IMG/VR virus record: IMGVR_UViG_3300003873_000003
Coordinates: 32,001-96,000 of that record
DNA from: a virus
Length of the DNA stretch: 64,000 bases
Reading direction: 5' to 3' (one strand)
Below, one piece after another: positions 1 to 45,215 of this stretch; within the stretch, counting starts at the first letter, position 1, and every line of letters begins with the position of its first letter. The notes beneath the pieces were generated by a model. That model saw only the letters and a list, made by a program, of their open reading frames with translations. It made no database searches and was not told where the DNA came from. A program made the translations under genes and the position numbers.

Positions 1-339
1 TACAATACGCTTCACACGACCCTGACACAGAGTATCAGCAATTTCTTTTAAGTCACCACTCAAGTCGTATGTCTTACACACATTGTAGGGGACAACATAG
101 ACTGTGCAATCTTTCTTTATGTTATCTTTGACACGGTTCATCATGTTGAAGAACAGCTTACCTACAGAACCACTAAACAACTCTTTACGTCCCATATCCT
201 CAGTTGGGATATGGTCAACGATAAACAGCACCTTGTAGTTTCCTTCACCTAAGTAAAAAGGTCGCACGGAAAAAGGGCTGCGGTTAAGCAGCCCCTTCAC
301 CTGACCTTCCGCTTTATCGGGAAGGTTGAAATACCTCAA
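1..339 (-). CDS. 5' part of a gene with an N-terminal uracil-DNA-glycosylase-like domain, probably a SPO1-type family A DNA polymerase (runs off the window; start uncertain)
   Basis: Open frame read by hand: ...GEGNYKVLFIVDHIPTEDMGRKELFSGSVGKLFFNMM...VYVVPYNVCK..., resembling the family-4 UDG-like pattern. The polymerase domain itself is not visible. Confidence 0.5.
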   Translation of the reverse strand, partial: MRYFNLPDKAEGQVKGLLNRSPFSVRPFYLGEGNYKVLFIVDHIPTEDMGRKELFSGSVGKLFFNMMNRVKDNIKKDCTVYVVPYNVCKTYDLSGDLKEIADTLCQGRVKRIV

Positions 340-340
340 C

Positions 341-907
341 TTATAGTACCTTTTCTAAGCGGCGCATACACAGACGAAGCCCCTTACGTAGGTAATCGCT
401 ATCTTCACCGAACACAAGGATATTTGCATCTGCGATGGTTTGCAGCAAAGGGCTGTGGGTTGCGATGATGAACTGCAAGTTAGGTTTACTCTCAATCAGG
501 CGAGCCAACTCAGCGATAGCAGAATAATCCAACCCAATTTCAGGTTCATCCATAACCACGGTTGTAGGGTCTGTAATGTTGTCCAACGCTCGCATATAAC
601 GCATAAGAGCTTCACCGTGAGATTCAGAATCGTTGGTAATCTTCTTGGATGCCTCACCATCAATGTTAGGCTTAGAGGTGATTGTTCCACTGGCGTGGTA
701 CAGAACAGGAACTTCGCTATCACGGATAAGTTGTGCAACAGGTACAGAATCAGCACCATTGACCACACGCATGATAGCTTCAATGGAACTGCTTTTTCCG
801 CTACCGTTGGGACCAACTAGAATGTTCACGCCTTCCATGAAGGTGACACTCGTGCAGCCACAGCGGCTAATGTAGTTATTGGCGACAAACTTTGCTCGTA
901 AAATCAT
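341..907 (-). CDS. ABC/AAA-type ATPase
   Basis: Walker A GPNGSGKSS, signature SHGE, Walker B VVMDEPE, H-loop ATHS; AAGGAG RBS before the ATG at 907. Confidence 0.85.
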   Translation of the reverse strand: MILRAKFVANNYISRCGCTSVTFMEGVNILVGPNGSGKSSSIEAIMRVVNGADSVPVAQLIRDSEVPVLYHASGTITSKPNIDGEASKKITNDSESHGEALMRYMRALDNITDPTTVVMDEPEIGLDYSAIAELARLIESKPNLQFIIATHSPLLQTIADANILVFGEDSDYLRKGLRLCMRRLEKVL

Positions 908-963
908 AGGTAAAATCTCCTTAAAATATAATGTGTTTCCGTCGGTCATTTACAGTTTTCAGT

Positions 964-1191
964 TCAAAATAAATTCCGTGCATAAGGTGGTAACTTGTCT
1001 TCGGGCTTCAATTCAGCTAGTGCCTGTACCCGAAGCTCCAGTATCCGAATAGAGTTGCTTACGTGCAACGGTACACTACTACCAAGTGCATCCAACCGAG
1101 CCTTGGTGTACAAAAGCGAATCAAGCTCTTTTTTAGTGGTCTCTATCACCGAAGCTAAATCACCCATCTGTAGCACCATCGGTATCCGCAC
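964..1191 (-). CDS. hypothetical protein
   Basis: ORF continuous with the operon, helical character. Confidence 0.5.
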   Translation of the reverse strand: MRIPMVLQMGDLASVIETTKKELDSLLYTKARLDALGSSVPLHVSNSIRILELRVQALAELKPEDKLPPYARNLF

Positions 1192-1636
1192 GGGAGTGAC
1201 CCGATGAGTCCATAGCGGTAAATACGTTTAATTCACCACGCCGCACCCCCAGCGTGGCACTTAGGGAAGTTAATGTTGGTAGCCCCTGATACGTGGTAGC
1301 CCCTGATACAGTATCCACATGCAGACTTTCTTTTTCGTCTTCATTACCATGCGTGTCATGTTTAGGAATAGGTGTGCCGCATGAACGGAGGCGGTACACT
1401 TCATCAATACAGTTCAGCAATGAATCTTGGTATATCCGCAAAGACCTCCGCAACGACTCAAAGCTATGAATCAGAGCAGCGTCAGGGGCAAAGCCTGACT
1501 CGGATAGACTCTCGACATACCCATCTAAGTGAGCTAGGTAGTCCCAAGCCTCCGCCTGTTTCTCATACAGACTAGCCTTCATCTCTCCCCAGAATGCTCC
1601 ATCTATGGTTTCATTTGCGTGTGCATCATCAGTCAT
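1160..1636 (-). CDS. hypothetical protein
   Basis: 4-nt overlap with the upstream gene, AAGGAG RBS. Confidence 0.65.
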   Translation of the reverse strand: MTDDAHANETIDGAFWGEMKASLYEKQAEAWDYLAHLDGYVESLSESGFAPDAALIHSFESLRRSLRIYQDSLLNCIDEVYRLRSCGTPIPKHDTHGNEDEKESLHVDTVSGATTYQGLPTLTSLSATLGVRRGELNVFTAMDSSGHSRADTDGATDG

Positions 1637-2646
1637 AGTAACTCCTTATTGTTGGTAGGTGATGGTACTGAAAGTTGGGTTGTGAGCCCTGCACCTTTAT
1701 AGAAAGAGAAGCAAGGCTTGCTATAGAAACCCCAACTCTTCTTCCACCCATTATCGTAAGACAACGGCTCTATGCGTCTTCCTTCCGCTACAGCAAAGCA
1801 AGATTGTGTTATGTAACCATTAACAGATTTATGACGCTTATGTCGAGTCCCTGACATGAACATCGTAAGCGAGTGCTTATTGCCAATCAAGATAACAACG
1901 GCAGCAAGCTCGTTTGTGTGCCTATCTGTAACACACAAAGCGGAAACCTCGTAGGAGCAACCCTTATCAAGCAGAGCCGACACTAAAGCATCAACATCAG
2001 GGACTGCATACTGCTCGAACCTGTAAGCGTTATCACCAAAACGCTCTTTCTGCATTTCTTTAACTGCCTCAATGTGGTACAAGCTGATAGGGGAAACTTC
2101 ATAGTAATACTTCTTGTTTAACCGCTTCAAACTATTTCGGATACGCCCACGTTGTTTGTGGTTACACGCATACTGCAAGTGGGACTCCCAATCCATTTCC
2201 GAGTAGAAATGGTCAGACGAGTATTTCACAGTAACTGGTCCCGTATCCGTGTGTAGCACCATAGTGTCACCGACATTTGGCAGATTGAAGTTCGTATTCA
2301 AGAACGGTTGGTTATCAATCACCGAGCCGCTAGGAAGACTATCAGCAATAACACTCATCCAGTCCTTACTTGAGAAAGGGTGTGCAGCACTTGGGGTCAT
2401 AGAGGACAACGAAAAGTCGCTGTCAATCTCAACGTAGTTAGAATACTCACCATTGTAGCACCCATACCTGCAAAGAGGCAAGTAAACAACATCACTCACC
2501 ACTGCACATGGAGGTTCCGCAAGATGCTTATGCCAATGCTCCGTCCACTCTAGGGTGGCTTGCACAGACGGCTTCTCGATACAAGATACCCTCCTCTCCC
2601 TATCACGGATAAACTCGCTTCCAGTAATCATATCAGGCTGGGACAT
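1633..2646 (-). CDS. GNAT-fold acyl/aminoacyl transferase (Acetyltransf_6/FemAB-like)
   Basis: KQRGRIRNSLKRL helix, LAAVVILI...TMFMSG strands and C-terminal GWKKSWG resemble this family; RBS before the ATG at 2646. Confidence 0.6.
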   Translation of the reverse strand: MSQPDMITGSEFIRDRERRVSCIEKPSVQATLEWTEHWHKHLAEPPCAVVSDVVYLPLCRYGCYNGEYSNYVEIDSDFSLSSMTPSAAHPFSSKDWMSVIADSLPSGSVIDNQPFLNTNFNLPNVGDTMVLHTDTGPVTVKYSSDHFYSEMDWESHLQYACNHKQRGRIRNSLKRLNKKYYYEVSPISLYHIEAVKEMQKERFGDNAYRFEQYAVPDVDALVSALLDKGCSYEVSALCVTDRHTNELAAVVILIGNKHSLTMFMSGTRHKRHKSVNGYITQSCFAVAEGRRIEPLSYDNGWKKSWGFYSKPCFSFYKGAGLTTQLSVPSPTNNKELL

Positions 2647-3715
2647 GTCTGACCTCTCCTTCATAGTTAATAAGCGTATTAGTATCACCATCGGTTATAA
2701 TCACCCTAGCAGGCTCTAGGGGTATCTTGCCAATGCCACCTTCACCATCCACAACAAACGTAGGCATGGCAACACCGCTGATATACCCCCTAAGTTGGCA
2801 TACGAGTGTTTGTGCATCTTGCAGACTGACTTCAAACTGTGCGTTACCTAACTCACGGTCACAGGTGTACACGTAGTAAGGTCGAATACCGATAGACACA
2901 AGGTGCATAAACAGGGTCTCAAGGGTATGGGCGTTATCGTTGATGCCTTTCAACAGCACAGTCTGACTTCCTAGTGTTACCCCTGCGTCACGCAGATTGT
3001 TTACACCATCAACAAATATCGGTGTAATCTCTTTCGGATGGTTCACATGGATATTCAAAAGCACGTTATAATCACGCAGCAACTTACAGAATGCTGGGGT
3101 TAGTCGGTAAGGATTCTGTACAGGCATCCGTGAGCTGATACGAAGAATCTTGATGTGAGGTAGTGCCCGTATCTCTTTGAAGAGGTGTTCAAGAACGGTG
3201 TCGCTCATCAACAAGGGGTCTCCGCCTGACAGAAGCACATCATTTATTTCTGTATGCTTTTGCAGGTACTCAAGTGAAGCCATGAGTTGACCTTTCGATA
3301 TGTAATCATCCTCCCCAGATACCATACGTTTGCGAGTACAGAATCGGCAGTACGCAGCGCAAGTGTTCTGAACAAGGAAAAGGACACGCTTAGGGTAACG
3401 GTGGATAATGCTCGTACCTGCGATTCGATGACGTTCCTCATTGAGAGGGTCTTCCTGCTCAACATCAGACACATCTAGCTCTTTCTTCGAGTAGAGGTAC
3501 TGCTTACGGATAGGACAGTCGGGGTCATCAGGCGACATTAAACTTAGCAGATAAGGTGTTACACCTACCTTGAGTAACCCATGTGGGGGTACATCATCAG
3601 GCACATTCGATAAGTATATGCGCAATCCATCCATACTTCGCACACTACGCTTTATCTGACTGCGCCAACTAACGTCATCAAAGCACATAGGGTCTGTAGC
3701 CATCGTTTTACTCAT
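2633..3715 (-). CDS. kamA: lysine 2,3-aminomutase (KamA-family radical SAM/PLP enzyme)
   Basis: DPL.EE, HRYPKRVL, CAAYCRFC (CxxxCxxC), SGGDPL, HVNHPKE, QTVLLKGIND, PYYVYTCD, VVDGEGGIGK (PLP lysine). Confidence 0.93.
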   Translation of the reverse strand: MSKTMATDPMCFDDVSWRSQIKRSVRSMDGLRIYLSNVPDDVPPHGLLKVGVTPYLLSLMSPDDPDCPIRKQYLYSKKELDVSDVEQEDPLNEERHRIAGTSIIHRYPKRVLFLVQNTCAAYCRFCTRKRMVSGEDDYISKGQLMASLEYLQKHTEINDVLLSGGDPLLMSDTVLEHLFKEIRALPHIKILRISSRMPVQNPYRLTPAFCKLLRDYNVLLNIHVNHPKEITPIFVDGVNNLRDAGVTLGSQTVLLKGINDNAHTLETLFMHLVSIGIRPYYVYTCDRELGNAQFEVSLQDAQTLVCQLRGYISGVAMPTFVVDGEGGIGKIPLEPARVIITDGDTNTLINYEGEVRHVPA

Positions 3716-4817
3716 GGGATGAACCTTGGATGAACAGCACCAGCTCATGTGGTTCGAGAACACCACCCCAAGCTTTAGAGAAAGAAGGTGAGATAGCTTC
3801 GGTCAAGTCCTCACCCACCATAGGTACGAACTCGGGGCGAGGTAAGCCTAGGTGAGCAGAGCGACCATCTTCGTGTGCATCATTATTCGTATCAGCGGCG
3901 AACCCCATGTGAACCATAGGAAACCCATCGTACAGAGCTTCGTGGTCACGCAAAGCACGTTGCATGGAAGATACGAGTTCCCCTGTAGTCCACGGTCGAA
4001 TCTTGACAGCCTCATCCAACTTAATGTCAGCTACAACACGAGTTTCACCGTCAGACTTAGAGTGGGACTCTTCCACAACGACATTCTTATGATAAAGCTC
4101 GATGCTGTTATTGAATAGGTTACGATGTGTGACAACTGTGTACGAAACATTCAGAGTAGAACTGGAGCGTACAATGCCATCAGCGATTAAATCCTTACCG
4201 ATGTCAGTATCTGTACTCAAAGGTGTCCAGCAGTCAGACTCGTACTTATCGTGGAAGGGTGTGTACACACCGAAAGGAACGATGTTAAACTGGGCATAAT
4301 AGTCATCACCGTGCTTAACAGCATTATTAAGCAGGTTGAGGAAAAAGTCATCCATTTCAGATTCGGTCTGCAAGGCATTCAAGCTGTAATAGTACCCCAA
4401 CACTAAGTTTGTGCCTTCGGGTATAGTACAGTGAGTGGCATCGGCTGTTTCTAACCCTGCACCGTTGTCATTCAGTTCGGTTATCGTATAAGAGCTTACA
4501 TCGACTGTGGGGGAGAAGTATCCAGTGAGTTTGGAATAGTAATCCTTCCCACCAAACAACTCAACAACGTTCGCAGAGGACAGGGACTCAATGAAGGGTT
4601 TGCCAAGCTCATAAGCAGTAGTTCGCTCAAAGTCAGCACTATGGGGGAACGTTATGCCTTCAAACTCACCGTTCAACACAGTACGCAATGTTTCTCGAAG
4701 AAGGAGAGTGTCGTACAAACGAGCATGTGGGTCAGGGGCAGTAACAGCCTCGTACACGGCGGCATGGTGGTAAAGAGATTTTGCATAGTAACATAACTTG
4801 CGGTCTTTTGATTTCAT
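3708..4817 (-). CDS. putative class I SAM-dependent methyltransferase
   Basis: Motif I-like VVELFGG, ADAT, LVLGYYYSLNAL, beta-rich cap insertion and RPWTTGELVSSM, as in small-molecule N-methyltransferases; divergent. Confidence 0.55.
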   Translation of the reverse strand: MKSKDRKLCYYAKSLYHHAAVYEAVTAPDPHARLYDTLLLRETLRTVLNGEFEGITFPHSADFERTTAYELGKPFIESLSSANVVELFGGKDYYSKLTGYFSPTVDVSSYTITELNDNGAGLETADATHCTIPEGTNLVLGYYYSLNALQTESEMDDFFLNLLNNAVKHGDDYYAQFNIVPFGVYTPFHDKYESDCWTPLSTDTDIGKDLIADGIVRSSSTLNVSYTVVTHRNLFNNSIELYHKNVVVEESHSKSDGETRVVADIKLDEAVKIRPWTTGELVSSMQRALRDHEALYDGFPMVHMGFAADTNNDAHEDGRSAHLGLPRPEFVPMVGEDLTEAISPSFSKAWGGVLEPHELVLFIQGSSHE

Positions 4818-4900
4818 TATTTTGTAACTCCCAATATAGGATAAACAGTGGATGTAACGTAGGTCAATCGGCTACACCCACCATTTACAGTTTTGCACTC

Positions 4901-6568
4901 TTATGGCTTAGGGTTATGACCTGTAGCCCTATCCATAATACGCTCTAACATCTCACTATAGAACCCCTCAAATAAAGTACCGTTGTAAACACAGTCAGAA
5001 CAAGCAGGCTCGATGTATTCTTGGATGCGTGGGGAATTAGGTCGCATTTCAAACACTGTACTAAGAACGGCAACACGCCCACCATGCGAAAAGAACCCAT
5101 CTGATACAACATCATAGTACACGTCAATATACCGCATATCAACAGTGCCTTGCTGTAAGAACGCTCCAGTCGGTGTTCCTCTGCGTGTATCAGGGTAGTG
5201 AACTGCCTTGGGTGTGCGGAAACGGTCGGCAGCAAACGAAAGGTCGATAAGCGATAACCCAAAACTTTCAGGGTATAGCAGCGGTACTATCGTGTTGCGG
5301 GGGTCTGACCAAGAGTAAGTGTTCGGTGCGTTGTATGAATAGAAGTAGTCTAGGAACTCAAAAGGGCTTGGGTGTAAGATAAGACTGTCTTCTGTATCAG
5401 CACACTCCGAAGGCGCAGGCTCCATCTCACCAGCTTGCATTGCAATCGTTGCGAAGTTGCTATTCGCAAGTCGAGTCATCCACTCGATACCATAAGTAAT
5501 AGAATCATCGTGACCCATAATAAACGTCAAGTCTATGACCCCAGTGTATTCAGGTGCATTGTCAGCCAACCACGCACCTAACCGACCTGCAATTACCTCG
5601 GGGTACATGAACCGCTTGAGGCGTTCAGATGTAAGAGACACATGGTAAGTAGCAACATCACCAAACTTGGGACCGCAGCCGCCATACTGATTGTCATGGA
5701 ACAAACGATTATCCTCAATCACCAACACGCCATTCCCCACGTGACCTTGAGCAACAAAATAGGAAAGGCTGAACTCAATACCTTCGATAAAGTCTTGGAT
5801 GATGATGGGGTAAGGTAGACCCTTGCCGTTTTCGGGACGCAAAGTCAAAGCACCAATAGACTGACCACGAAGTTCCTTTACGTACACCTTTTTCGAGGTG
5901 TCATCAACGGCGGAGCATACACCGCACCAATCTTCCTCATCTTGAACCGTGACCGTTTTAGGTGTAGCGATACCGAGAGAACGGAACGCCGCATCGCCAA
6001 CACTACGAACTAACTCTAAGTCCCGTGCGGCTTTCGGTGTTCTGGGGAACAGGTTGTACGGCAAGGGTTTACCCTTCGCAACCTTGGAATTGGCTACGCC
6101 TTTATAGATGATGTCATCCAACCATTGATAGAACGGTTTAGTCTGCGCCTGCTGTGCAACTTGTTTGGAACGGGGCTTAGTACGACCACCTTTCGTTGCA
6201 CGGATGTCATCCATAGTTCTTGCGTGCTGGATACCACAGGCAGCAGGGTACACCACAGTCCCACTACCATTCTTCTCGGTAACAAAGTGATGTACGATAC
6301 GCAGCGTAGCTTCCAACGAAAAGGCGTACTCCGACCCACCAATGGAGTGAGGAATCAAGCAGGCAGTTGGATGGTCTGCAAAATAATCAGAGGCAGCGTC
6401 CCTGTTACCGATAACCAGTGTGTTAAACAAAGAAGGTTCAAAGGCTGTACTATCCCTCACCTGCTCCATAGACAAAGAAAAACGAGGTACAAGCAGATTG
6501 AAAGATTTGGTCTTGGGGTCACCGACCGTAATAACACGGTAGTCGTCAATAGAAAATTCGTCACTCAT
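4901..6568 (-). CDS. PurD-like ATP-grasp amide ligase
   Basis: VYVK, IIIQDFIEGIEFS, GPKFGD (PurD GPNTGG), YTGVIDL, IEWMTR (PurD EFNxR), GGRV. Confidence 0.75.
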   Translation of the reverse strand: MSDEFSIDDYRVITVGDPKTKSFNLLVPRFSLSMEQVRDSTAFEPSLFNTLVIGNRDAASDYFADHPTACLIPHSIGGSEYAFSLEATLRIVHHFVTEKNGSGTVVYPAACGIQHARTMDDIRATKGGRTKPRSKQVAQQAQTKPFYQWLDDIIYKGVANSKVAKGKPLPYNLFPRTPKAARDLELVRSVGDAAFRSLGIATPKTVTVQDEEDWCGVCSAVDDTSKKVYVKELRGQSIGALTLRPENGKGLPYPIIIQDFIEGIEFSLSYFVAQGHVGNGVLVIEDNRLFHDNQYGGCGPKFGDVATYHVSLTSERLKRFMYPEVIAGRLGAWLADNAPEYTGVIDLTFIMGHDDSITYGIEWMTRLANSNFATIAMQAGEMEPAPSECADTEDSLILHPSPFEFLDYFYSYNAPNTYSWSDPRNTIVPLLYPESFGLSLIDLSFAADRFRTPKAVHYPDTRRGTPTGAFLQQGTVDMRYIDVYYDVVSDGFFSHGGRVAVLSTVFEMRPNSPRIQEYIEPACSDCVYNGTLFEGFYSEMLERIMDRATGHNPKP

Positions 6569-7278
6569 AGCTCAACTCCTAGTTCTTTGAAAAGTTCATC
6601 CACTTCGATACAAATGGGGCATTCATGGCAAGGTTCAGCATACTCGCAGCTTTGAGTACGCGCAAAGTCAATACCCATTGAAATGCCAAACTGAATAACC
6701 TCACGCTTCGTTAGGGACTCAAGCGGTGCTGTGACCAAGAAAGGCTCTGCGAAGGATGAAAAGATAGTGTCGTTCACCTGTGTATGGATTTGGCGGCAAG
6801 CATCCCGACCACGCATTAGGTTCAAGTCTGTGTTCATACCCAATTCAGATTGGTTGGATTGGAACCCCGTAGCTAAGCGGTTACAGCCGTTATAAGAGGC
6901 AACCGTGGCTGCCATGAGCATGAACAAAGGGTTGCGCCCATTAAGGAATCCCATCTCGGTGTCGGTCAGTACACAACAGTCATCACGATGGACACCTTTC
7001 TTTTGCAACTCGTAGTCTTCTTGGAAAGTAGGAACAGAGGTCAACTTACTGTAGTCCCAATCAATAACGTGCGTCTTAACTGTGCAACCGCAGTAATTTG
7101 ACAGGAAGTTTGCGTGCCAGTTCATATTGCGTTTCATGGTTTCAAAGTTCGCATTGCCTCCATTCACTAGGATTAACATGCCTAGTGAGCCAGCCTCTGC
7201 CAACATGTACGCAGCTACAGTGCTGTCGATACCTCCACTGTAAAGTACGGCTTGTTTCTTCTCAATCGGTTTTGTCAT
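6565..7278 (-). CDS. divergent QueC-like PP-loop ATPase (second paralog)
   Basis: SGGIDST PP-loop, GRNPLF, PLESLTKREVI, TQSC...CHECPIC Zn site; lacks YPDCR; AAGGAG RBS before 7278. Confidence 0.85.
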   Translation of the reverse strand: MTKPIEKKQAVLYSGGIDSTVAAYMLAEAGSLGMLILVNGGNANFETMKRNMNWHANFLSNYCGCTVKTHVIDWDYSKLTSVPTFQEDYELQKKGVHRDDCCVLTDTEMGFLNGRNPLFMLMAATVASYNGCNRLATGFQSNQSELGMNTDLNLMRGRDACRQIHTQVNDTIFSSFAEPFLVTAPLESLTKREVIQFGISMGIDFARTQSCEYAEPCHECPICIEVDELFKELGVEL

Positions 7279-7312
7279 AACATCTCCTTGTTTTGTAGTC
7301 ACAATTTACACT

Positions 7313-7993
7313 TTACCCATCTTCATACAGCGTAGGGTCAACAATGCCTGCCAACGAAAAGGCTAAACGGCGTTCCGTACAAGTACCGCACTTACCACAG
7401 TGGGTCACCCCACCTTTATAGCAACTGTATGTTTCTGCGAACGGTACACCCAAGCTTGCACCGATAGATACAATTTCGTTCTTAGTCAACCCACCGAAGG
7501 GGCTTACAACTTCAACACCACCGTATGTGCCTAATGAAGCAGCCTTACTCATAGCAGTTGTGAACTCGGTACGGCAATCGGGGTAGATGGCGTTGTCTCC
7601 TTTATGCGAGGCTAGGTAAACATGGTTAAGCTTACGGGCTTCTGCGATAGCTACAGCCACAGACAACATCACACCGTTACGGAAAGGAACCACAGTGCTA
7701 CGCATCGTAGCATCCTCGTAGTGACCTTCAGGGACGTCACCTGCACCCGAAATCAAGGAACTCAGCTCACCTAAGCTGCATTGGTTGAAGACGTTATGCA
7801 AAGGTATGACGAGGTGCTCCGTGTTAGTGATAGAGCAGTTACGAGAGGCACATTCGAGTTCTCGCTCATTGTGATTTGAACCGTAGTCGAACGACACCGC
7901 TAGAGCAGGCTTCATTTGGTACAACAGAGTGGTACTATCTAGACCCCCACTGTAGATTAAGATACCAGTATTTTCGAGAATGTTAGGTTTCAT
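7313..7993 (-). CDS. queC: 7-cyano-7-deazaguanine (preQ0) synthase
   Basis: SGGLDST, FDYG, TVVPFRNGVMLS, YPDCR, TYSCYKG..HCGKCGTC.ER, all canonical. Confidence 0.95.
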   Translation of the reverse strand: MKPNILENTGILIYSGGLDSTTLLYQMKPALAVSFDYGSNHNERELECASRNCSITNTEHLVIPLHNVFNQCSLGELSSLISGAGDVPEGHYEDATMRSTVVPFRNGVMLSVAVAIAEARKLNHVYLASHKGDNAIYPDCRTEFTTAMSKAASLGTYGGVEVVSPFGGLTKNEIVSIGASLGVPFAETYSCYKGGVTHCGKCGTCTERRLAFSLAGIVDPTLYEDG

Positions 7994-9138
7994 TTTGAAT
8001 CTCCATTTGAATCATTTACTTTCAGAATACACCGCTTTAAGGAGTACAAACGGTCAGGGTCAAGCAGGTCAAGATAGTCAGGATAAAACTTCACAGGATT
8101 TACATATTGTACTTCGGGCTTATACCCATCAGGCAAGTCACGTAAGGCGGCTTCAATAGCTTGATTGTAATAGTCACAGTAAGAAACAATATGCACAGGT
8201 TTATGTTTGATGATATACTTCCTAACCTGCTGCATAGCACGCCAGTCATTAGGCACGCCACTATCGTACATAGGTGCTACACCCCAGAGGTCTTGAGGTA
8301 CGATACCTAGAACACCAGTAACGATAGCAATAGTCCAAGTATCAATCCAGTCCTCATCAGGGGCTTCACAAGAAGCGAGTGTATCCATGACGGCTTTGTG
8401 CATAGGGGAAGGGTACGGCTTATCCGCAGCACATGGAACGAGTAGCAGATTCGAGGTTGGATTTGAAGGGCTATAATCATCTAAGTCCTCCAAGTAGTCC
8501 AGTACAGTTGGTCGGTGGAACCCTCCGTTGTTAGTCACCACGAAAGACTTATCATGCAACCCTACACACCAATGAGGCTGAAAGCCTTGCACATCAAGCT
8601 TCCACAAGAAATCCGTAAGCTCTGGGCGCATAGAGGCAGACCACTCGACAGCCGAGCGTGTAACCTCCAAATCAGTGAAAGTCAACGCCACGTCCTCCTC
8701 AAATTCTACAGTAGGTAACTGCACTTCAACCCCCATGTAACGCAAAAGCATACACCAAGAAGAGGGAGGATACTTCGCAATGACTTTAGGTGCATCTTTT
8801 AAGTCGCCCGTACATTGGGTCGGTAAGAGAGGAGCGAGCGTAGAAACGTACCCATCCTCATCCATGTTAAAGTCCCGCCATGTAAAGTTTGGGTTGGCAA
8901 GCTGGAACAGCTTTTTGAACAACGTCATGTAGCCTTGATAGGTGTCCTCATACGACTCGCCTTTATTAGGCGCACTCAAGTAAATGGTGTAAGTCTCTTG
9001 TGGGTCTTCGTCAGACAGACCTAGTGTGTGGTTACAAGGGTAACCAAACAGCTCACCGTGGATACAGGGGACTCCACTGACCTTTACGTGTGAGCTAAGG
9101 TCTTCGGGTGTAGGTGACGGTAGTTCTTGTTCATCCAT
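7990..9138 (-). CDS. archaeosine synthase ArcS-like (DUF5591-type) protein with an N-terminal extension
   Basis: LLLVPCAADKPYPSPMH, VTGVLGIVPQDL, PMYD match the ArcS PCxxxKPYxxSxxH...GxVP...YD core; 4-nt overlap with queC. Confidence 0.75.
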   Translation of the reverse strand: MDEQELPSPTPEDLSSHVKVSGVPCIHGELFGYPCNHTLGLSDEDPQETYTIYLSAPNKGESYEDTYQGYMTLFKKLFQLANPNFTWRDFNMDEDGYVSTLAPLLPTQCTGDLKDAPKVIAKYPPSSWCMLLRYMGVEVQLPTVEFEEDVALTFTDLEVTRSAVEWSASMRPELTDFLWKLDVQGFQPHWCVGLHDKSFVVTNNGGFHRPTVLDYLEDLDDYSPSNPTSNLLLVPCAADKPYPSPMHKAVMDTLASCEAPDEDWIDTWTIAIVTGVLGIVPQDLWGVAPMYDSGVPNDWRAMQQVRKYIIKHKPVHIVSYCDYYNQAIEAALRDLPDGYKPEVQYVNPVKFYPDYLDLLDPDRLYSLKRCILKVNDSNGDSK

Positions 9139-9195
9139 TGGTTTCTCTCCTCTTAATCATGCGGGTCTAATAACAATTCACTGCACTTGCGGTAC

Positions 9196-9203
9196 ATTTA
9201 CAG
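9196..9203 (-). promoter_or_regulatory. CTGTAAAT putative phage promoter heading the modification operon
   Basis: The same motif recurs in coding orientation upstream of more than 10 genes. Confidence 0.55.
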
Positions 9204-9226
9204 TTTATACGTTGAAAAAAATTAAC

Positions 9227-9268
9227 AAAAAAAAGCCGCCCTACCCTCACTTGGGTAAGACGGCTTTC
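9227..9268 (-). terminator. rho-independent terminator
   Basis: Hairpin (AAAGCCG...CGGCTTT) followed by a T-run on the - strand, after the 9284..9715 gene. Confidence 0.7.
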
Positions 9269-9283
9269 TAAGAGGTAAGCTAC

Positions 9284-9715
9284 TTAGCGAAGCTTACGGG
9301 ACTTCGGTTGCTTAGAAGCGTGACCTTGCTTCTTAGGTGCATCGGGTGCATCAGGTGCATCGGGTGCATCAGGTGCATCGGGTACATCAGAATTTACCCC
9401 TTCTTGACCGTCAACACCAGTATCCTGTGTTGAACCCTCGGTAGTAGACTCGGATTGGGCTTCCTTCCGAGACTTAACCAACGCAGTCAAAGCGTCCAAC
9501 GCATCTTGAGTAAGATGTGCAACACGAGGTAAGACAAACCGAATAGATGCAGCTAAGTAAGAATCCTGCGATACCTTACCCCACACGCCATCTAACTTGC
9601 CTAATGGGTACTCACCCAAGCTCTTGAGAGCCTTCTGACCTTCAAGGAACATGGTGTTTACTTCATGTTCCGAATTGCCTTCGTTATCAATAATACCTTT
9701 TCCTTCTTCACTCAT
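9284..9715 (-). CDS. hypothetical protein with (PDA)n repeat and basic tail
   Basis: AAGGAGG RBS; 9-nt tandem repeat encoding PDAPDAPDAPDAPDA. Confidence 0.75.
   Translation of the reverse strand: MSEEGKGIIDNEGNSEHEVNTMFLEGQKALKSLGEYPLGKLDGVWGKVSQDSYLAASIRFVLPRVAHLTQDALDALTALVKSRKEAQSESTTEGSTQDTGVDGQEGVNSDVPDAPDAPDAPDAPDAPKKQGHASKQPKSRKLR
9336..9389. repeat. 9-nt tandem repeat (ggtgcatcr), about 6 copies
   Basis: Seen directly in the sequence. Confidence 0.9.
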
Positions 9716-9739
9716 AATAGCCTCCTTTTAGCTACTTCG

Positions 9740-12700
9740 TTATTTGCTACGAACATGGATTGCCCGTAGTTCGTCCAACACGCCCTCTTTGTTGATGATA
9801 CCAACGTCACGAGAGATTGACTCCAGAACCTGTTTAGCTTCCGCAGGTGTCTTCAAGAACAAGAACTTGCGTGATGGCTCTAAACGGAACTTAACGCCGT
9901 TCACATGCAATGAAGGCAAGTGAACCGCACTAGGGGCACGATTAGATACAACAATATACAGCTCACCATCTTGAACCATTGGGTATGGCAACAACGTACC
10001 TTTAGGGATAGGTTTCTTCTTCAAGTTCCAGAAGTTCACAATATCCTTCCAGTTAGACCGTGAGATGTCACTGATACGCTTGTTACGTGGCAGCATCTCC
10101 AAGAAGTCCTCAAGCTTGTCCATGCGAGATTGAGGTATGTTGAACGTGATACCTTTACGCTTGCCATTGGATTTCTTAGACTTCTTAACTGTAGGTGCCA
10201 CAGTGCTATCAGCAGGAATACCTGCTAAGAAAGCATCCAACAATTCATCAAGCTGCTTACGCTTAGTAATGTGAGCAGCCCAATAAGCACCAACATCCTT
10301 GAAGCCATGCTTGGATAGAACGCCTGCATCAGGGTCATCACTAAGAACAGACAACACTAGATGCTCATTGAAGCTTCCTGCATACAACTCGACACCTTCG
10401 TCCTCTTCGTCAATCTCCTCCCCGAATGGTGAGGCAGAAGACTTAGCCTTGCCTTTAGCCTTAACCTTAGCTTTAGGCTTGCGAGTCTTACGTGGCTCGG
10501 CAGGCTCATCAGCAGATTCATCCTCGCCGTCAGCCCAGCTATCAATGTCCTCATCAGTAAACCCATCGGACTCGTCATCGTCTTCTTCGATTTCAAACTC
10601 GTCATCGTCTTCTTCGATTTCAAACTCGCCGTCATCGTCTTCTTCAAGTTCTTCTTCAAAGCCATCGAACATGGATTTGCCTGATACACTCAACATGTCG
10701 TCCCACAAGCTTTCGCCTTCCTCACTAACTTCATCCTCGAAGCGGAAGAATACGCTAGTAATAGGGAACGATACTTTGCGTTTGCCACCAGCAAGCATAA
10801 CTTGTAGGCGGGTCTTACCAACCTTAGTTACCATGCCAGCACCAAGCTCTGTAAGCACAGTCTCACCATACAGTGAGTTCTCATCACCTTCATGGCGTGT
10901 AAGAAACTCGCCTACAGTAACCAACCCTAGGGCTTCGGCGTTCGGCAGGCTTTCAGGTGACATGCCGGGGATAAACGGCTGGTCATCGAGTTCCTTGTAG
11001 TCCTTCGGTGCAGGAAGAGCCACCACAGGAATCATCTCGGGGAACTCTTTGCGTTTAGCTTCAAACTCCCTATCCTCAAACTCCTTGATGCCTTGGTAAC
11101 CATCGAGGTACTTAGCTAAGGATTCTTGAGTCCTAAATTGGTCAAAACTCTGGGTATTCATGGTGATAGTACCAAGAGACTCAAACGCATTGCTGTCATA
11201 GTAAGGGTTGTCAGCTTCCGTAAAGTTCAGGTTACTGATAGTCTTACTAATCAAGCGGGCTGTCTTAGCCATCTCCATACTACCTTCGATAACGAGCCAG
11301 TCAAAGTAGATAACCTTGCCTGCATCGAAGTTATTAACATCAGGGCGGAAGATACGAGACAATGCTTGGTCGTGGTCTCCTGGAGCCCATACAGACTGCA
11401 CACGAATCAACCGAGTACAGAACTGGAAGTTGAAGCCAGTGTTAAGGGTCTTCTCCGTTGCAAACAAAACAACCTTGTTAGGGTCAGTGTAAAAAGAAGA
11501 CAAATCAGTTTTGTGCTTACCATGGTAAAGGATAGCTTTATCGCCATGACGGGATGCTTCCATCAAGTGTTCCACAGCAGATACGTTTGTTGTGAACACA
11601 AGAATCTTACCTTTTGAAGCTTCTGGGTCTGCCAAATGAGCATCAATCAGGTCATCCACCATCTTCACTTTAGGGCTGATTAAGTCTTCGCCTTCCAACA
11701 ACTCACGACCACCATCGGAAGTGCTTGGGTCCACTACAAACTGCTCTAGGTCAGTCAATGAGTTCATCAACTTGGATTCAAGCATCTTCATAGAGGCAGC
11801 ATCTTTCTTGCGGAGTAACGCCTTGTAAGCGGGGTCAGATTTAACCTTCTCCAACGCTTCTTGCAACATCAAGTCATGCGTTGTTTGTTGGTTAGGGCTG
11901 AACTTACCAAAGTGCATCTTCTCAACCAACGTAGGTAACATAAACGCCCAGTCACTACGTTTCGCACTCAAAGAGGCAGCGTATGGTGCTAAGGTATCCT
12001 GAATAGCTTTAGCCGACTGAGGGGTCAACGCACCATTCTCATTCATAAACTTAGCTTTGAAGTTATTGACGTTATAGAAGATAGAGCCGTCAATAAGGTT
12101 CCCAAGACCTACCAAGTCAGCAACAGTGTTAGACACCAAAGTACCTGATGCGAACCGCTTGTACTTAGCCCCCATGATAATACGGTTAGCCGCAATACTA
12201 CGTTGGCTAGTAGGGTTCTTCAAGTTGTGGCTTTCATCCATAACAACTAAATCACACCCCAACTCTGCTATCTTGATAGCATTCAAGTAAAGGTCAACAT
12301 GCTCACCGCCGAACGCAACGGAGGACTTGTTAGACATACTCAAGAAGTTGTACGACACAAGGAAGATAGTGTTACGAGGTGCAGCCTTCGCCATCTCGAA
12401 TAGGTCACGACCTTCACGCTCCCAAAGGTTCACTGTATCAGAGTGGAAAGGGAAGAAGTTGATATTACCATGTGTGAATTTGCGAATCTCGCCTGCCCAT
12501 TGCGACAATAACTGCCCTGGAGCTAACAAGATAGGACGTTTCACACGACCTTCACTCATCATAGTCAAGATGTCCAAAATAGACATACATGTTTTACCAC
12601 CCCCAGGCTGTACAGACATCATAGCCGCAGGTGAGATACCGTCATCGTCAAGCTTGTGCAAAATCTTGGCTTGGTGAGGGAACACTTTAGTCCCAGGAGC

Positions 12701-14572
12701 CACACCAGCGATTTCCAAAGGTACTTTAGCTTCCTCTGCACTAACTACAGCCTTGTTCTTCTTACACAATTCAGCGTAGTCAGATTTCAGCTTGTTGATA
12801 GAATCAATATCGCCATATTTACGAATCCACACAAAGAAAGGATGGTTACGCAAAGCAGTGGTGTACGTGTGGGTCTTAGACAACACAGCAACATCATCGA
12901 AGGGATGACGAAGATACTCGACCACAGTAGCGCAAACAGCACGCTGAACGAAAGCATCGGGCAAGTATGTATCAGGGTCTAGTTCATCTGTAGAGAACAA
13001 GTCCTTAGAAGCCAGTGGAAGACGACCGTTACTATCAACAGAAAGGAAGTCAGCACCAGTTAAGGTATCACGTGGACCACGACCTGCATATTGGCTCAAG
13101 AATAAATCAGCAGCTTTAGCTAAGCGAGCAGCATCCTTCCCACCATACTTCAACTTGCCTACATCTTCCATTGCTTTCGCAAACATGGTTTCCCACAAGT
13201 CATGCAGTTCAGGGGTTGCGCCCATATAACCAAGAATAAGCAAATACGTGTCTAGGTTCTTAGACAACAAGTAACGGATAACGTAGGCATGAGGCGGCTT
13301 AACACACCCACGAAGGTTAGTGGTGACAGGAGTCAAACTCGAATGGTCTATAGTCAAGTAAAGCTCTGATACCCAATCCTCATAAATAGGTAATGCTTTA
13401 ACTGCACCCAAGATAGCCCGATACTTATCCTTATGTTCTGAATCAACATCGGAAACACCATAGATAACTTTACCCGTCTCGGGGTTATACAAGCTATCCA
13501 TCAGGTCGTAGTATGCAGCAACAGCACCTTTACTCACAGGTGGTAAGTACATGCACTGACCCGAACTCAAGATAACGATGCGCTCGTCCTCATCGTAACG
13601 ACCTTTCAGGTGAGGTGAGTTTGGAACACTAGACTCCAAGTTCTCCAATGTAACGTTGCGAGCCATAGGCTTAGGCTTATCACGTTGCTTTCCGCTAGGG
13701 ATAAAGCGGCTTGCCCACTCGTAAGCAGGTGCAATGCGGAAGTTGTCCTCGGTAGTACCCGTACCCCATTCAAGTAATGCCTTTGGTACATTGATTGTCA
13801 TGTGTCCCCTGACAGTACCTTCAATAACATAGGCTTGTCTTCCAGTGCGCAGAAACACGGAAGTAGAGTTCTTCTCAATGCTATACTCGGAGTTACCATC
13901 CTCGTCTTCTTCCAAAGCAACCTTAGAATCAAGTTCCATGGTCAGCTTGATTGTTGGAGACAGTAGCTCCATCATAGACTCGGCAGCAGCACCTCGGAAG
14001 CTGTTAGGCGCACCGACAGTATCACCGATGTCATCATCGCTATCAAGTGTAGGAAGCAATACGGACTCTTCTGATAACGCATCCATCCAAGCGTCAATAG
14101 GCAACTCGATAGAAGCAGTACCGCCTTGCTTGACGGCAGAACGCCATAAGTCAGCCAGTTCTTCGACAGCAGGTGCAGGAGCATCAGCGATGCGAGCCAC
14201 ACGGATGAAACCTAGACTGTAGGTAATATCATACGATGTGCCATCGTCATTCTCCAACATGACAATGCGTTCTTTCTTAGAAGCCTCCATGACACGACTT
14301 AGAATACTACCGTCATTGACGCTAGGAAACAAAGAGTCATTCTTAATCAAGAACTTAGAGTCCCGTTGCAAGTCCTTCATAGGGCGAGGGTCTTGCAGGT
14401 GTTGGTAGGCACACACGGCAGTGCGTTTTGCACTGTAATAAAACGGCTCGAAGTTGGATGCCAAGGTCTCACCTAGGCTATCAACGCCAAGGGCATATCT
14501 GCTATTTCGGGATTTCTTTGCGGACGTTACAGGTGTAACATCACGATGGGAGCTTTGGCTTCCACTAAACAT
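9740..14572 (-). CDS. large SNF2/SWI2-family helicase/ATPase
   Basis: FPHQ, QPGGGKT, QWAGEIRKF, DESHNLKN, SGT, SPKV, GFNFQ, QALSRIFR; acidic then basic tract near the C-terminus; GGAGG RBS before 14572. Confidence 0.9.
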   Translation of the reverse strand: MFSGSQSSHRDVTPVTSAKKSRNSRYALGVDSLGETLASNFEPFYYSAKRTAVCAYQHLQDPRPMKDLQRDSKFLIKNDSLFPSVNDGSILSRVMEASKKERIVMLENDDGTSYDITYSLGFIRVARIADAPAPAVEELADLWRSAVKQGGTASIELPIDAWMDALSEESVLLPTLDSDDDIGDTVGAPNSFRGAAAESMMELLSPTIKLTMELDSKVALEEDEDGNSEYSIEKNSTSVFLRTGRQAYVIEGTVRGHMTINVPKALLEWGTGTTEDNFRIAPAYEWASRFIPSGKQRDKPKPMARNVTLENLESSVPNSPHLKGRYDEDERIVILSSGQCMYLPPVSKGAVAAYYDLMDSLYNPETGKVIYGVSDVDSEHKDKYRAILGAVKALPIYEDWVSELYLTIDHSSLTPVTTNLRGCVKPPHAYVIRYLLSKNLDTYLLILGYMGATPELHDLWETMFAKAMEDVGKLKYGGKDAARLAKAADLFLSQYAGRGPRDTLTGADFLSVDSNGRLPLASKDLFSTDELDPDTYLPDAFVQRAVCATVVEYLRHPFDDVAVLSKTHTYTTALRNHPFFVWIRKYGDIDSINKLKSDYAELCKKNKAVVSAEEAKVPLEIAGVAPGTKVFPHQAKILHKLDDDGISPAAMMSVQPGGGKTCMSILDILTMMSEGRVKRPILLAPGQLLSQWAGEIRKFTHGNINFFPFHSDTVNLWEREGRDLFEMAKAAPRNTIFLVSYNFLSMSNKSSVAFGGEHVDLYLNAIKIAELGCDLVVMDESHNLKNPTSQRSIAANRIIMGAKYKRFASGTLVSNTVADLVGLGNLIDGSIFYNVNNFKAKFMNENGALTPQSAKAIQDTLAPYAASLSAKRSDWAFMLPTLVEKMHFGKFSPNQQTTHDLMLQEALEKVKSDPAYKALLRKKDAASMKMLESKLMNSLTDLEQFVVDPSTSDGGRELLEGEDLISPKVKMVDDLIDAHLADPEASKGKILVFTTNVSAVEHLMEASRHGDKAILYHGKHKTDLSSFYTDPNKVVLFATEKTLNTGFNFQFCTRLIRVQSVWAPGDHDQALSRIFRPDVNNFDAGKVIYFDWLVIEGSMEMAKTARLISKTISNLNFTEADNPYYDSNAFESLGTITMNTQSFDQFRTQESLAKYLDGYQGIKEFEDREFEAKRKEFPEMIPVVALPAPKDYKELDDQPFIPGMSPESLPNAEALGLVTVGEFLTRHEGDENSLYGETVLTELGAGMVTKVGKTRLQVMLAGGKRKVSFPITSVFFRFEDEVSEEGESLWDDMLSVSGKSMFDGFEEELEEDDDGEFEIEEDDDEFEIEEDDDESDGFTDEDIDSWADGEDESADEPAEPRKTRKPKAKVKAKGKAKSSASPFGEEIDEEDEGVELYAGSFNEHLVLSVLSDDPDAGVLSKHGFKDVGAYWAAHITKRKQLDELLDAFLAGIPADSTVAPTVKKSKKSNGKRKGITFNIPQSRMDKLEDFLEMLPRNKRISDISRSNWKDIVNFWNLKKKPIPKGTLLPYPMVQDGELYIVVSNRAPSAVHLPSLHVNGVKFRLEPSRKFLFLKTPAEAKQVLESISRDVGIINKEGVLDELRAIHVRSK

Positions 14573-32751: not shown

Positions 32752-32854
32752 ACAGGCTCCTGTTGTTACTTTCACTTTAAGTTAGTCATATTTACATTTC
32801 TTATCCAGTTAATTAGTGTAAATGTGTAAACCTCTAAGCACAACAGGAGGAATC

Positions 32855-43565: not shown

Positions 43566-45215
43566 ATGTCATATCATTTCGTACATGCAGGCATCTTCCC
43601 TTATAAGAAGAGTGGGATTGCTGTCTACACAAAGTTTGGCAAGCATCATGTCAACAATCTTCGGGTGAAGCATAACCACGAGTACACTTGGATTACAGCC
43701 CCCGACCGTGAGCTTATCATTGTAAGCGATGCTCATAAGTCAGATTGCTTCCGCCCTCAAGGGTGTAACTTCGATACCATGCAAATCTTTGGTCCCACTA
43801 TACCGAGTTTTGATGGGTATGACGTTGATTACATGATGACTAATTACACGACACATATCGGTAAAGAGCATCTATCCCCTATGCACCGTAAGCAAGGGTT
43901 TCGTGACCACACCCACCCTCTAGCCCCAGACAGGGCAACTTGGATGGCTGATTCGGGTGGGTTTCAGTTCAGTACAGGGGTGCTATCTTTCGTTGACCCT
44001 ATCAACATGGTTAAGTGGTATAACGACAATGCCGATATTGGTATGGTATTGGATATGCCTGTTTCTAGGGAACATGGGCTTGCAACCTTCAAGCGTGCTG
44101 CACATACCCAAGCTCGGAATACTGCGGCTATGGTAGCGCATAAAGCCGAGCATTTGGATTTGATGAATATCATTCATGGAAGCACTGTGGAGGATAGGGC
44201 TTACTACCGCCGTGTCGTTGAGCGTGACGATATAACGAAGCTTGCGGTGGCTGGGGACTACAATGGCACTGTGCTTGACGTTATCAACAACCTGCTATCA
44301 CTTGTTAATGATACAGGGTCTCACTATGACCACTATCATTTACTTGGCATCTTCAACCCTCGCATTACCGCCTTGCTTGCTAAGGTTGCTTCCGAGGGGA
44401 TTGTTGATACCCTAACCTCTGATAGTAGCACTGCGATTCAAGCCGCTACCGTGCGTGAGTTCTATGTGATAAGCAAGAACGAGGGGCTGCATCGTACGCC
44501 TGTTGGTCACAAGTATATCCATCCGAACATATCCAACCGATTGCCTTGTTCATGTCCCGTCTGCTCCACACTGAAATATACAGACGTTTTCACAACTGTA
44601 AATTCAGGTAGCTGTATTGCCTTGCTTGCTGTGCATAATATGTTCGCAATGTCCACCTATATGAGTATGCTGGACACCTATGCCAACACCCTTTCCACCG
44701 AGGAATACCGTTCCTATTTATCTTCCACGATTGCTAAGAGGGGTAGCGGTGGGCAGGAGATGCTTCATTGCATTGACTTTATTGAGTCTTACAAAGAAGA
44801 AGGGCTAGAAGCTGCACAGCGTAAGTTCCAATTTTACTTGGATGGTAATTTAGGTTCTGCTAAACCTTTGCCTTCTATGTTAGGTGGTGCAGTGGAGGAA
44901 GAGGAACCCAAGGAAGAATTAAGCCTAGATTCCGATGATGACACCCCTGCAGCAGGCAAAGAAGAATACCATGCGCACTTACAGAAAGTTTTAGGTAACT
45001 TTGACAGATGGGCGGAAGGCGAAGACCTATCTCATGTTGATGGGTTAGATATGCGTAGGTCCGAGAAGTCCAAAGAGTACAAAGAACGTAAAGCAGCTCG
45101 TGATAGAGGCGAACATCAGGAGCCTGTGAAGAAGAAGCAGTTATTGGGTATGAGTACCAAAGCTAAACAGCGAGCCAAAGGGACGAGGAGGTTGCGAGCC
45201 CGACCTAAGGAGTAA
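43566..45215 (+). CDS. dpdA: TGT-fold transglycosylase, DpdA-like (7-deazaguanine insertion into DNA)
   Basis: MADSGGFQ, LDMP, IIHG, HLLG, SDSST, LPCSCPVC...HN Zn site; queC and ArcS-like genes in the same window. Confidence 0.75.
   Translation: MSYHFVHAGIFPYKKSGIAVYTKFGKHHVNNLRVKHNHEYTWITAPDRELIIVSDAHKSDCFRPQGCNFDTMQIFGPTIPSFDGYDVDYMMTNYTTHIGKEHLSPMHRKQGFRDHTHPLAPDRATWMADSGGFQFSTGVLSFVDPINMVKWYNDNADIGMVLDMPVSREHGLATFKRAAHTQARNTAAMVAHKAEHLDLMNIIHGSTVEDRAYYRRVVERDDITKLAVAGDYNGTVLDVINNLLSLVNDTGSHYDHYHLLGIFNPRITALLAKVASEGIVDTLTSDSSTAIQAATVREFYVISKNEGLHRTPVGHKYIHPNISNRLPCSCPVCSTLKYTDVFTTVNSGSCIALLAVHNMFAMSTYMSMLDTYANTLSTEEYRSYLSSTIAKRGSGGQEMLHCIDFIESYKEEGLEAAQRKFQFYLDGNLGSAKPLPSMLGGAVEEEEPKEELSLDSDDDTPAAGKEEYHAHLQKVLGNFDRWAEGEDLSHVDGLDMRRSEKSKEYKERKAARDRGEHQEPVKKKQLLGMSTKAKQRAKGTRRLRARPKE

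Follow-up and report, generated by a model that had tools for sequence, protein, structure and literature searches.

A probable phage-encoded lysine 2,3-aminomutase and its conserved partners: a candidate beta-lysine branch of 7-deazaguanine DNA modification

We analyzed a 64,000-nucleotide stretch of viral DNA (hereafter the window; bases 32001-96000 of the 118,360-bp virus record IMGVR_UViG_3300003873_000003) and focused on a minus-strand gene at 2633..3715, whose product is a KamA-family aminomutase of the type using radical S-adenosylmethionine (SAM) and pyridoxal 5'-phosphate (PLP). Conserved alongside this gene we found a PurD-like ATP-grasp ligase and a second QueC paralogue, not the ArcS-like gene of the same operon. 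Sequence comparisons make it highly probable that the enzyme is a genuine lysine 2,3-aminomutase, converting free L-lysine to beta-lysine. We lean, with distinctly less assurance, toward reading the aminomutase, the ligase and the QueC paralogue as a module added to a DpdA-type 7-deazaguanine system, which would place beta-lysine on a DNA base. More tentatively still, a subset of jumbo phages, including cultured phages of Pseudomonas putida and Vibrio coralliilyticus, may replace guanine by beta-lysyl-7-deazaguanine, possibly N-methylated or further aminoacylated. Enzyme family, active-site residues, operon structure, co-occurrence and kinship were established directly, as follows.

Family, active site and kin of the aminomutase

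The open reading frame (ORF) extends over 2633..3766 of the minus strand, and initiation at an ATG at 3715 yields 360 residues; AAGG precedes this codon by 8 nt, and the frame overlaps the stop of the upstream gene by 8 nt. Pfam identified Radical_SAM (48.1 bits) and LAM_C (40.9 bits) domains, and the protein passed the NCBIfam KamA family model TIGR00238 (280.1 bits; cut-off 199.2). A phmmer search of the PDB returned a sole match, Clostridium subterminale lysine 2,3-aminomutase 2A5H (E 8.8e-83), aligning residues 15-355 of the query with 18-362 of the chain. Within this alignment the CAAYCRFC cysteines C119, C123 and C126 coincide with the Fe-S/SAM triad C125/C129/C132 of 2A5H, K330 of GGIGK with the PLP lysine K337, R128 with R134, D286 of YTCD with D293, and D323 of VVDG with D330. 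Of these 2A5H residues, we take Arg134 to bind the lysine carboxylate and Asp293 and Asp330 the epsilon-ammonium. In glutamate 2,3-aminomutase (Eam) the two Asp are replaced by Lys/Asn. The catalytic and lysine-binding residues were invariant in a 48-row family alignment, except that D330 is Glu in EpmB. They argue against a glutamate mutase and for a predicted lysine-type aminomutase, a class within which they do not tell KamA, AblA and EpmB apart. The initial annotation, which had singled out the triad, the GGIGK lysine and the two acidic positions and had favored lysine over glutamate, was thus borne out at each aligned position, and the glutamate 2,3-aminomutase equivalog TIGR04368 also scored below its cut-off (291 bits; cut-off 650). 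The zinc site of 2A5H differs: its ligand Cys268 is Asn in the window enzyme, which stops at about residue 366 in 2A5H numbering and lacks the C-terminal Zn cysteines. No row of the 48 has Cys at the Cys268 position, bacterial lysine-fermentation and abl enzymes included.

The nearest named relatives in a 5.8-billion-protein search (45-50% identity) came from Bradyrhizobium, Shewanella, Psychromonas, Ferrimonas and Undibacterium. Eighty bacterial KamA loci came from a scan of species genomes, and their neighbors were clustered and searched against Pfam with one representative per cluster. These neighbors included D-lysine 5,6-aminomutase alpha-like proteins (45 loci), Lrp/AsnC (41), zinc-dehydrogenase-like proteins (36), B12-binding beta subunits (25) and BKACE (19), and six loci, in Shewanella, Psychromonas and Moritella, had a GNAT of 276-297 residues beside KamA. 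Burkholderiales-type loci, combining Lrp/AsnC, KamA, a zinc-dehydrogenase-like protein, D-lysine 5,6-aminomutase alpha, a B12-binding beta subunit, a thioesterase and BKACE, are the lysine-fermentation (kamDE) set. The loci of Shewanella, Psychromonas and Moritella, with MarR, KamA, sometimes a symporter, and that GNAT, are of the ablAB type.

We placed these enzymes in a tree of 48 rows: the window enzyme, those of phages GR11A and Lauda, 26 of 58 viral loci, 13 of the 80 bacterial loci, five database proteins and Salmonella EpmB as outgroup (quick IQ-TREE search, LG+G4, with Shimodaira-Hasegawa-like approximate likelihood ratio test (SH-aLRT) support only; two bacterial loci for which an antisense frame had been called were left out). 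The window enzyme fell in a clade of 14 rows with 100% support, made up of five KamAs from QueC-cluster phages, four abl-type and four kamDE-type bacterial rows, and Bradyrhizobium, with phage and bacterial rows interleaved. The GR11A enzyme grouped with abl-type bacterial enzymes (SH-aLRT 88), twenty other viral KamAs formed a separate group, and the EpmB outgroup sat on a branch of 1.9 changes per column, with 33% identity to the window enzyme. The initial suggestion that the enzyme may supply beta-lysine is now the best reading, given the fully supported clade with lysine-fermentation and ablAB enzymes. Because its kin lie in lysine-fermentation and abl operons, the window enzyme most likely acts on free L-lysine.

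Viral relatives were recovered with an alignment as query; a scan of viral contigs with the single KamA protein had returned none. By tblastn, KamA occurred in 20 records of the phage collection, among them nine P. putida and two V. coralliilyticus phages (about 44% identity) and three huge uncultured phages, several other records being bacterial or fragmentary. About 50 other viral contigs (L009-L065) carry KamA homologues of 36-44% identity. Pfam searches of 150 neighbors of 25 of these loci revealed no recurring partner and heterogeneous neighborhoods. A Ddl-type ATP-grasp ligase lies immediately upstream of KamA in viral contig L032 (3181-4200) and in L148, a metagenome-assembled Clostridiaceae genome (6897-7928); the two KamAs group together in the tree, marking a second, different KamA-ligase pairing.

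Genes that accompany the aminomutase

We compared gene content across whole records (Table 1), including four phages without KamA (PhiXhv-15, NCTB, BCSR5 and Motura) that were chosen for having a DpdA-like gene. A PurD-like ligase and two QueC-family genes were present in all five records with the KamA module and in none of these four phages. Ligase homologues adjoin KamA in GR11A, Lauda and the loci L008, L020 and L045. In L020, the DpdA-like gene, both QueC-like genes, the ligase and KamA form one co-directional 10-kb array, and in G002 the same genes lie on one strand within 17 kb.

Table 1. Gene counts in whole phage records (QueC family: genes over the Pfam cut-off)
Record	DpdA-like	QueC family	PurD-like ligase	KamA	DUF5591
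G000 (record of the window)	1	2	1	1	1
GR11A	1	2	1	1	1
Lauda	1	2	1	1	0
G001 (includes L020)	1	2	1	1	0
G002 (includes L045)	1	2	1	1	0
PhiXhv-15	1	1	0	0	
NCTB	1	1	0	0	
BCSR5	1	0	0	0	
Motura	1	1	0	0	
LR756500		0	0	1	

The ArcS-like gene behaves differently. As initially annotated, it shares one operon with KamA (Pfam DUF5591, 34.2 bits, cut-off 26; 36.3 bits in a six-frame search), and QueC belongs to the same operon. The functional pairing of the two enzymes that had been drawn from this arrangement found no support in that form: the DUF5591 gene occurs in two of the five genomes with the KamA module, and among 21 other viral ArcS2-like loci, with flanks of about 10 kb, QueC was found at all 21 and KamA or the ligase at none. 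The ArcS-like gene instead accompanies a high-scoring QueC (176 bits in the record of the window, 200 in GR11A) and is missing from genomes whose two QueCs are both diverged, scoring 83 bits at most, which fits an ArcS-like enzyme needing the preQ0 nitrile.

The ArcS2-like protein matched the ArcS equivalog NF040592 through its core domain alone (45.3 bits; cut-off 440), and a profile of 33 ArcS2-like sequences matched AF0587 (2Q07) in the PDB across the motif (E 4.9e-6). Its motif, PCAADKPYPSPMH, is shorter by one residue, between KPY and S, than the published ArcS2 motif, PC-X3-KPY-X2-S-X2-H (PMC10516641); all 33 relatives keep P, C, K, P, Y and H. Of the two QueC-family proteins, one passes the QueC model TIGR00364 (162.1 bits; cut-off 150.3; Pfam QueC 176.2 bits), and the diverged paralogue scores 42.3 bits with that model and 64.1 bits with Pfam QueC.

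The 555-residue protein between the QueC paralogue and the 369-residue neighbor of KamA is, by profile and structure-model comparison, a PurD-like ATP-grasp ligase, and one that is not filed as PurD. The window protein itself had no Pfam match at E 0.001. A six-sequence profile of the ligase matched ten GAR synthetases in the PDB (best PurD 2yw2, E 2e-21), and the L020 member and 15 of 40 wider relatives passed the Pfam GARS_A cut-off. An AlphaFold2 (AF2) model (pTM 0.67) was confident over residues of about 180-415 and poor over 1-150; the best twelve Foldseek matches of this model were all GAR synthetases (PurD). The subfamily is rare, with 13 representatives at E <= 1e-30 among 1.84 billion.

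A transglycosylase gene was found through relatives. The Pfam TGT model had no match on the 118-kb record and detected weak TGT-like ORFs in GR11A and Lauda, and the GR11A ORF matched 43566..45215 of the window, on the plus strand (E 2.8e-75). A three-sequence profile of these DpdA-like proteins matched archaeosine TGT 1IQ8 in the PDB (E 6e-6) through the DSGGFQ and Zn-motif stretches. In Achromobacter phage Motura a relative lies between annotated QueC, asparagine synthetase, QueE and GTP cyclohydrolase genes, and in Burkholderia phage BCSR5 another lies beside annotated QueE and GTP cyclohydrolase. The product reads as the predicted DNA transglycosylase of the system. QueC and FolE of the preQ0 pathway are present in the 118-kb fragment, FolE some 6 kb outside the window, past its start and on the strand of the operon. 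No QueF exceeded threshold in a search of four records from relatives, and a route through preQ1 would therefore depend on the host enzyme.

The record is 45% complete by CheckV. The initial annotation as a phage gene is supported by PHROG matches in the record to a portal, clamp loader, UvsX, SbcCD, primase and Dda-like helicase, and the gene order around the TGT-like gene is that of Xanthomonas phage PhiXhv-15 (229 kb). Because of these phage-type genes and this shared order, we regard the window as a fragment of a jumbo phage.

A proposed pathway and its alternatives

QueC adenylates the C7 carboxylate of 7-carboxy-7-deazaguanine (CDG) and adds ammonia, and PurD phosphorylates the carboxylate of glycine and joins glycine to the amine of phosphoribosylamine. 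Beta-lysine, the product of lysine 2,3-aminomutase, offers one carboxylate and two amines. Together, the three activities are those required to attach beta-lysine to a C7 carboxylate or amine of a 7-deazaguanine. Because the QueC and PurD families are ATP-dependent formers of amide bonds, we propose that beta-lysine is amide-linked to 7-deazaguanine. KamA would make beta-lysine from free L-lysine inside the infected cell, and the QueC paralogue and PurD-like ligase would link it, as an amide or amidine, to the C7 side chain of 7-deazaguanine. Candidate acceptors are CDG, G+, preQ1 or a further residue, before or after entry into DNA. The DpdA-like enzyme would put the 7-deazaguanine into phage DNA, and the methyltransferase-like and FemAB-like neighbors might tailor the beta-lysyl base further. 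In this scheme we infer the substrate, the acceptor, which of the two linking enzymes forms which bond, the order of steps and whether ligation takes place on the free base or on DNA.

Several observations weigh against this proposal. The search profiles A1, A2 and A4 were built partly from the carrier genomes, so matches there arise by construction; the independent parts of the comparison are the absences in PhiXhv-15, NCTB, BCSR5 and Motura and the DpdA-like matches in G001 and G002. The five carriers are related jumbo phages, and their co-occurrence pattern reflects shared ancestry in part. The DpdA-like gene lies 40-90 kb from the KamA operon in the window, GR11A and Lauda, and searches of the 118-kb fragment, itself 45% complete, revealed neither QueD nor QueE. 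KamA occurs without QueC or ligase around it in the huge phage LR756500 and in the roughly 50 other viral contigs, so phage KamA has other uses too. Finally, the window enzyme scores below the cut-off of the lysine 2,3-aminomutase (AblA) equivalog TIGR03820 (332.6 bits; cut-off 525.4), as do the KamAs of GR11A, Lauda, L008 and L020 (316-334 bits) and three bacterial kin (326-332 bits).

Beta-lysine might have a use apart from DNA, as a free solute or cationic counter-ion in acetylated or methylated form, in a small-molecule product, or in protein modification by the ATP-grasp ligase; closeness to the deazaguanine genes would then reflect the packing of auxiliary metabolic genes into one operon. 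ATP-grasp enzymes modify proteins and metabolites too, a 155-residue GNAT directly follows KamA in GR11A, whose KamA keeps company with abl-type enzymes in the tree, and a QueC-family tblastn match was present at only four of 60 viral KamA loci (L006, L007, L008 and L020), which, with the heterogeneity of the 25 representative viral neighborhoods, speaks for such a use. We nevertheless consider it fairly unlikely, since within DpdA-like phages the ligase, second QueC and KamA occur together in five of five genomes versus none of four and share one array with the DpdA-like gene in L020. Two particular forms of this idea, both raised as alternatives in the initial annotation, were rejected. AblA/AblB-type synthesis of an acetylated osmolyte finds no counterpart here, as neither the 352-residue protein downstream of KamA nor the GR11A GNAT resembles an AblB-type GNAT (E 3.5 for the former against the Shewanella member of this family of about 270-300 residues). 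An EpmB-like role is contradicted by the EpmB equivalog score (229 bits; cut-off 369.3), the 33% identity to Salmonella EpmB and its outgroup branch of 1.9 changes per column, and by the complete lack of matches to the EpmA-like class II synthetase core (PF00152) in all five KamA genomes.

Coupling to the ArcS-like enzyme, which would add lysine or beta-lysine to preQ0 while KamA rearranges the base-bound lysine or replaces RaSEA, seems to us improbable. The two genes do share one operon in the window and in GR11A/GR7B, and the ArcS of T. kodakarensis transfers lysine to preQ0 even at the nucleoside level, according to PMC11298593. KamA is also the only radical SAM match in its 118-kb record and in the complete Lauda genome, so neither encodes a RaSEA-like partner. 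These points are offset by the absence of the ArcS-like gene from three of five KamA-module genomes and by the 21 other viral ArcS2-like loci, QueC being their constant companion. In addition, the ArcS2 of Vibrio phage nt-1 together with DpdA2 alone gave dG+ in E. coli, as PMC10516641 reports. KamA, for its part, keeps the epsilon-ammonium and carboxylate residues for free lysine and clusters with free-lysine enzymes, and its use as a RaSEA substitute was rejected on these grounds and because the ArcS-like pairing is not conserved. By analogy with nt-1, the normal reaction on preQ0 is the probable role of the ArcS2-like enzyme, an optional component of the system.

Turning to the substrate itself, KamA could be an aminomutase for arginine or ornithine, or make the (R)-isomer as EpmB does, so that its product would not be (3S)-beta-lysine. 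The window enzyme reached no equivalog model, the arginine 2,3-aminomutase model aligned over its whole length (300.6 bits), and the residues examined do not separate the subfamilies. The arginine score, however, lies far under its cut-off of 600, AblA is the best-scoring equivalog, and the clade includes lysine-fermentation and abl-operon enzymes, so that we give such a substrate little credence and retain free L-lysine and beta-lysine as the predicted substrate and product.

The operon, its surroundings and known systems

The operon runs from 9138 to 1633 on the minus strand, all genes lying head to tail, with overlaps measuring 4, 4 and 8 nt (Table 2); a hairpin just upstream of the ArcS-like gene likely marks its 5' boundary. 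PHROG assigned no family to KamA, the ArcS-like protein, the ligase or the 369- and 352-residue proteins, and a megablast search of window positions 1-12000 against GenBank phages gave no match.

Table 2. Features of the window discussed in the text
Feature	Position	Strand	Basis or remarks
FemAB-like / Acetyltransf_6 double-GNAT-fold protein, 352 aa	1633..2691 (likely start 2646)	-	ESM Atlas
KamA-family radical SAM/PLP aminomutase, 360 aa; predicted L-lysine 2,3-aminomutase	2633..3715	-	Pfam, NCBIfam, PDB, tree
369-aa orphan protein immediately upstream of KamA	3708..4817	-	methyltransferase-like by ESM Atlas alone
PurD-like (GAR synthetase-like) ATP-grasp ligase, 555 aa	4901..6568	-	profile vs PDB, AF2/Foldseek
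Diverged QueC paralogue, 245 aa	6565..7302	-	PP-loop SGGIDS and C-terminal Cys cluster kept
QueC, 7-cyano-7-deazaguanine (preQ0) synthase, 226 aa	7313..7993	-	TIGR00364, Pfam
ArcS2-like DUF5591 protein, 382 aa, motif PCAADKPYPSPMH	7990..9138	-	Pfam PF17884
Terminator-like hairpin, 17 pairs then T run	9230..9269	-	just upstream of ArcS-like gene
DpdA-like TGT-superfamily transglycosylase, 549 aa	43566..45215	+	DSGGFQ, PCNCPVC...H; 40 kb from operon

Two neighbors flank KamA. The 369-residue protein matched nothing in Pfam, NCBIfam or PHROG and found no homologue except itself in the 5.8-billion-protein search. ESM Atlas comparison placed it near class I methyltransferases (features 0.90; TM-score 0.50-0.54), a lead as to its function that comes from the Atlas; an AF2 single-sequence model was unusable (pLDDT 31.5). 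The 352-residue protein, described initially as an adjacent GNAT, is related to Acetyltransf_6/FemAB-like clusters by the ESM Atlas alone (features 0.95; TM-score 0.63-0.70), and it has neither a Pfam match nor any likeness to AblB. Methyltransferase-type genes also adjoin other KamAs, namely a Methyltransf_31 match in Lauda (E 0.033) and a SET-domain protein in L045; as weak leads, they hint at N-methylation. The L045 protein (9508-9936; 142 residues; Pfam E 2.3e-16), which overlaps the KamA start in this complete 232-kb phage, is a possible (beta-)lysine N-methyltransferase. In L020, an ORF just downstream of KamA (11120-12535) contains an intein splicing domain (Pfam E 3e-14).

Further features of the window and its relatives lie outside the module. 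Directly upstream of the operon, 9740-14623 encodes a 1627-residue SNF2-type helicase (PHROG 21391/62), in which a long acidic segment rich in Asp/Glu lies around residues 1320-1400. At 31729-32775 lies a 348-residue protein matching a PHROG labelled 'CRISPR/Cas system associated' (E 7e-18), and PhiXhv-15 has a gene of the same annotation near its DpdA-like gene. The segment 43566-49411, comprising the DpdA-like gene, a small ORF, a sigma factor, and SSB-like and UvsX-like genes, is identical in order to PhiXhv-15 (L157 11630-17807). ARAGORN found no tRNA or tmRNA genes in window positions 1-64000. Among phages without the KamA module, QueC lies in a 521-residue open frame in PhiXhv-15 (107423-108058) and next to an asparagine-synthetase-like gene in Motura (L160 9809-11695), which suggests Gat-QueC-type archaeosine synthesis in both.

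If beta-lysine is indeed attached to a 7-deazaguanine of phage DNA, that base would be the first purine in any DNA to carry an amino acid, and KamA enzymes would acquire their first role in DNA modification. The C7 groups of known phage 7-deazaguanines are all small (cyano, amido, amidino, aminomethyl, methyl- or formyl-aminomethyl, carboxy, or none), and a cationic, amino-acid-bearing 7-deazaguanine would make purine hypermodification as complex as that of thymidine. It would also imply new anti-restriction and anti-CRISPR chemistry and new reactions for the KamA, PurD-like ATP-grasp and QueC paralogue families. The module is present in eleven cultured phages, nine of them on P. putida KT2440 according to their records, and the four DpdA-like relatives without it (PhiXhv-15, NCTB, BCSR5 and Motura) provide natural controls. 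We found no paper linking an aminomutase or beta-lysine to phage 7-deazaguanine; an earlier mention is possible, as the supplements of PMC10516641 were available in part. The word 'lysine' is absent from the main text of that paper, and the one supplement covered lacks aminomutase, KamA, ATP-grasp, GR11A and GR7B.

Among known systems, the closest to the enzyme itself is KamA/AblA (C. subterminale 2A5H, TIGR03820), with which it has in common the fold, CxxxCxxC, the PLP lysine and the equivalents of Arg134, Asp293 and Asp330. KamAs of proteobacterial kamDE and ablAB loci are 44-48% identical to it and join it in one well-supported clade. In contrast to these enzymes, that of the window is phage-encoded, falls below the equivalog cut-off and lacks the Zn cysteines of 2A5H, and its neighbors are QueC-family, PurD-like, DUF5591 and FemAB-like proteins instead of KamD/E, Kdd, Kce or AblB. 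The ligase similarly retains the ATP-grasp core of PurD and differs in its N-terminal region of about 150 residues, its rarity and its place in a deazaguanine operon.

Phage 7-deazaguanine systems use DpdA1-4 with FolE, QueD, QueE and QueC, and tailor the base with QueF, ArcS2, Gat-QueC or DpdL/M/N (PMC10516641). Cui, Hutinet et al. 2023 described eight 7-deazaguanine DNA derivatives, none amino-acid-bearing, defined ArcS2 as the DUF5591 core, and in the legend of their Figure 1 drew a second QueC homologue as a proposed ADG synthase (PMC10516641). QueC, the ArcS2-like DUF5591 protein, FolE and a DpdA-like gene recur here, and KamA with the PurD-like ligase would open a new branch of tailoring. 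The archaeal ArcS-RaSEA pathway, in which ArcS still transfers lysine when preQ0 is presented as a nucleoside (Fujita et al. 2024; PMC11298593), likewise has a DUF5591 core with a PC-x3-KPY...S-x2-H type motif and a lysine-related radical SAM enzyme, which here shares an operon with the ArcS-like gene. The ArcS2-like protein, unlike archaeal ArcS, has no PUA or TGT-like domains and a motif one residue shorter, and the radical SAM enzyme of the operon, a PLP aminomutase and not RaSEA, is paired with the ArcS-like gene in two of five genomes and none of the 21 other loci. A last parallel, in concept only, comes from phage thymidine hypermodifications: there too a modified base receives an amino acid, and some of these pathways employ radical SAM and PLP enzymes, the base and the enzyme families being different.

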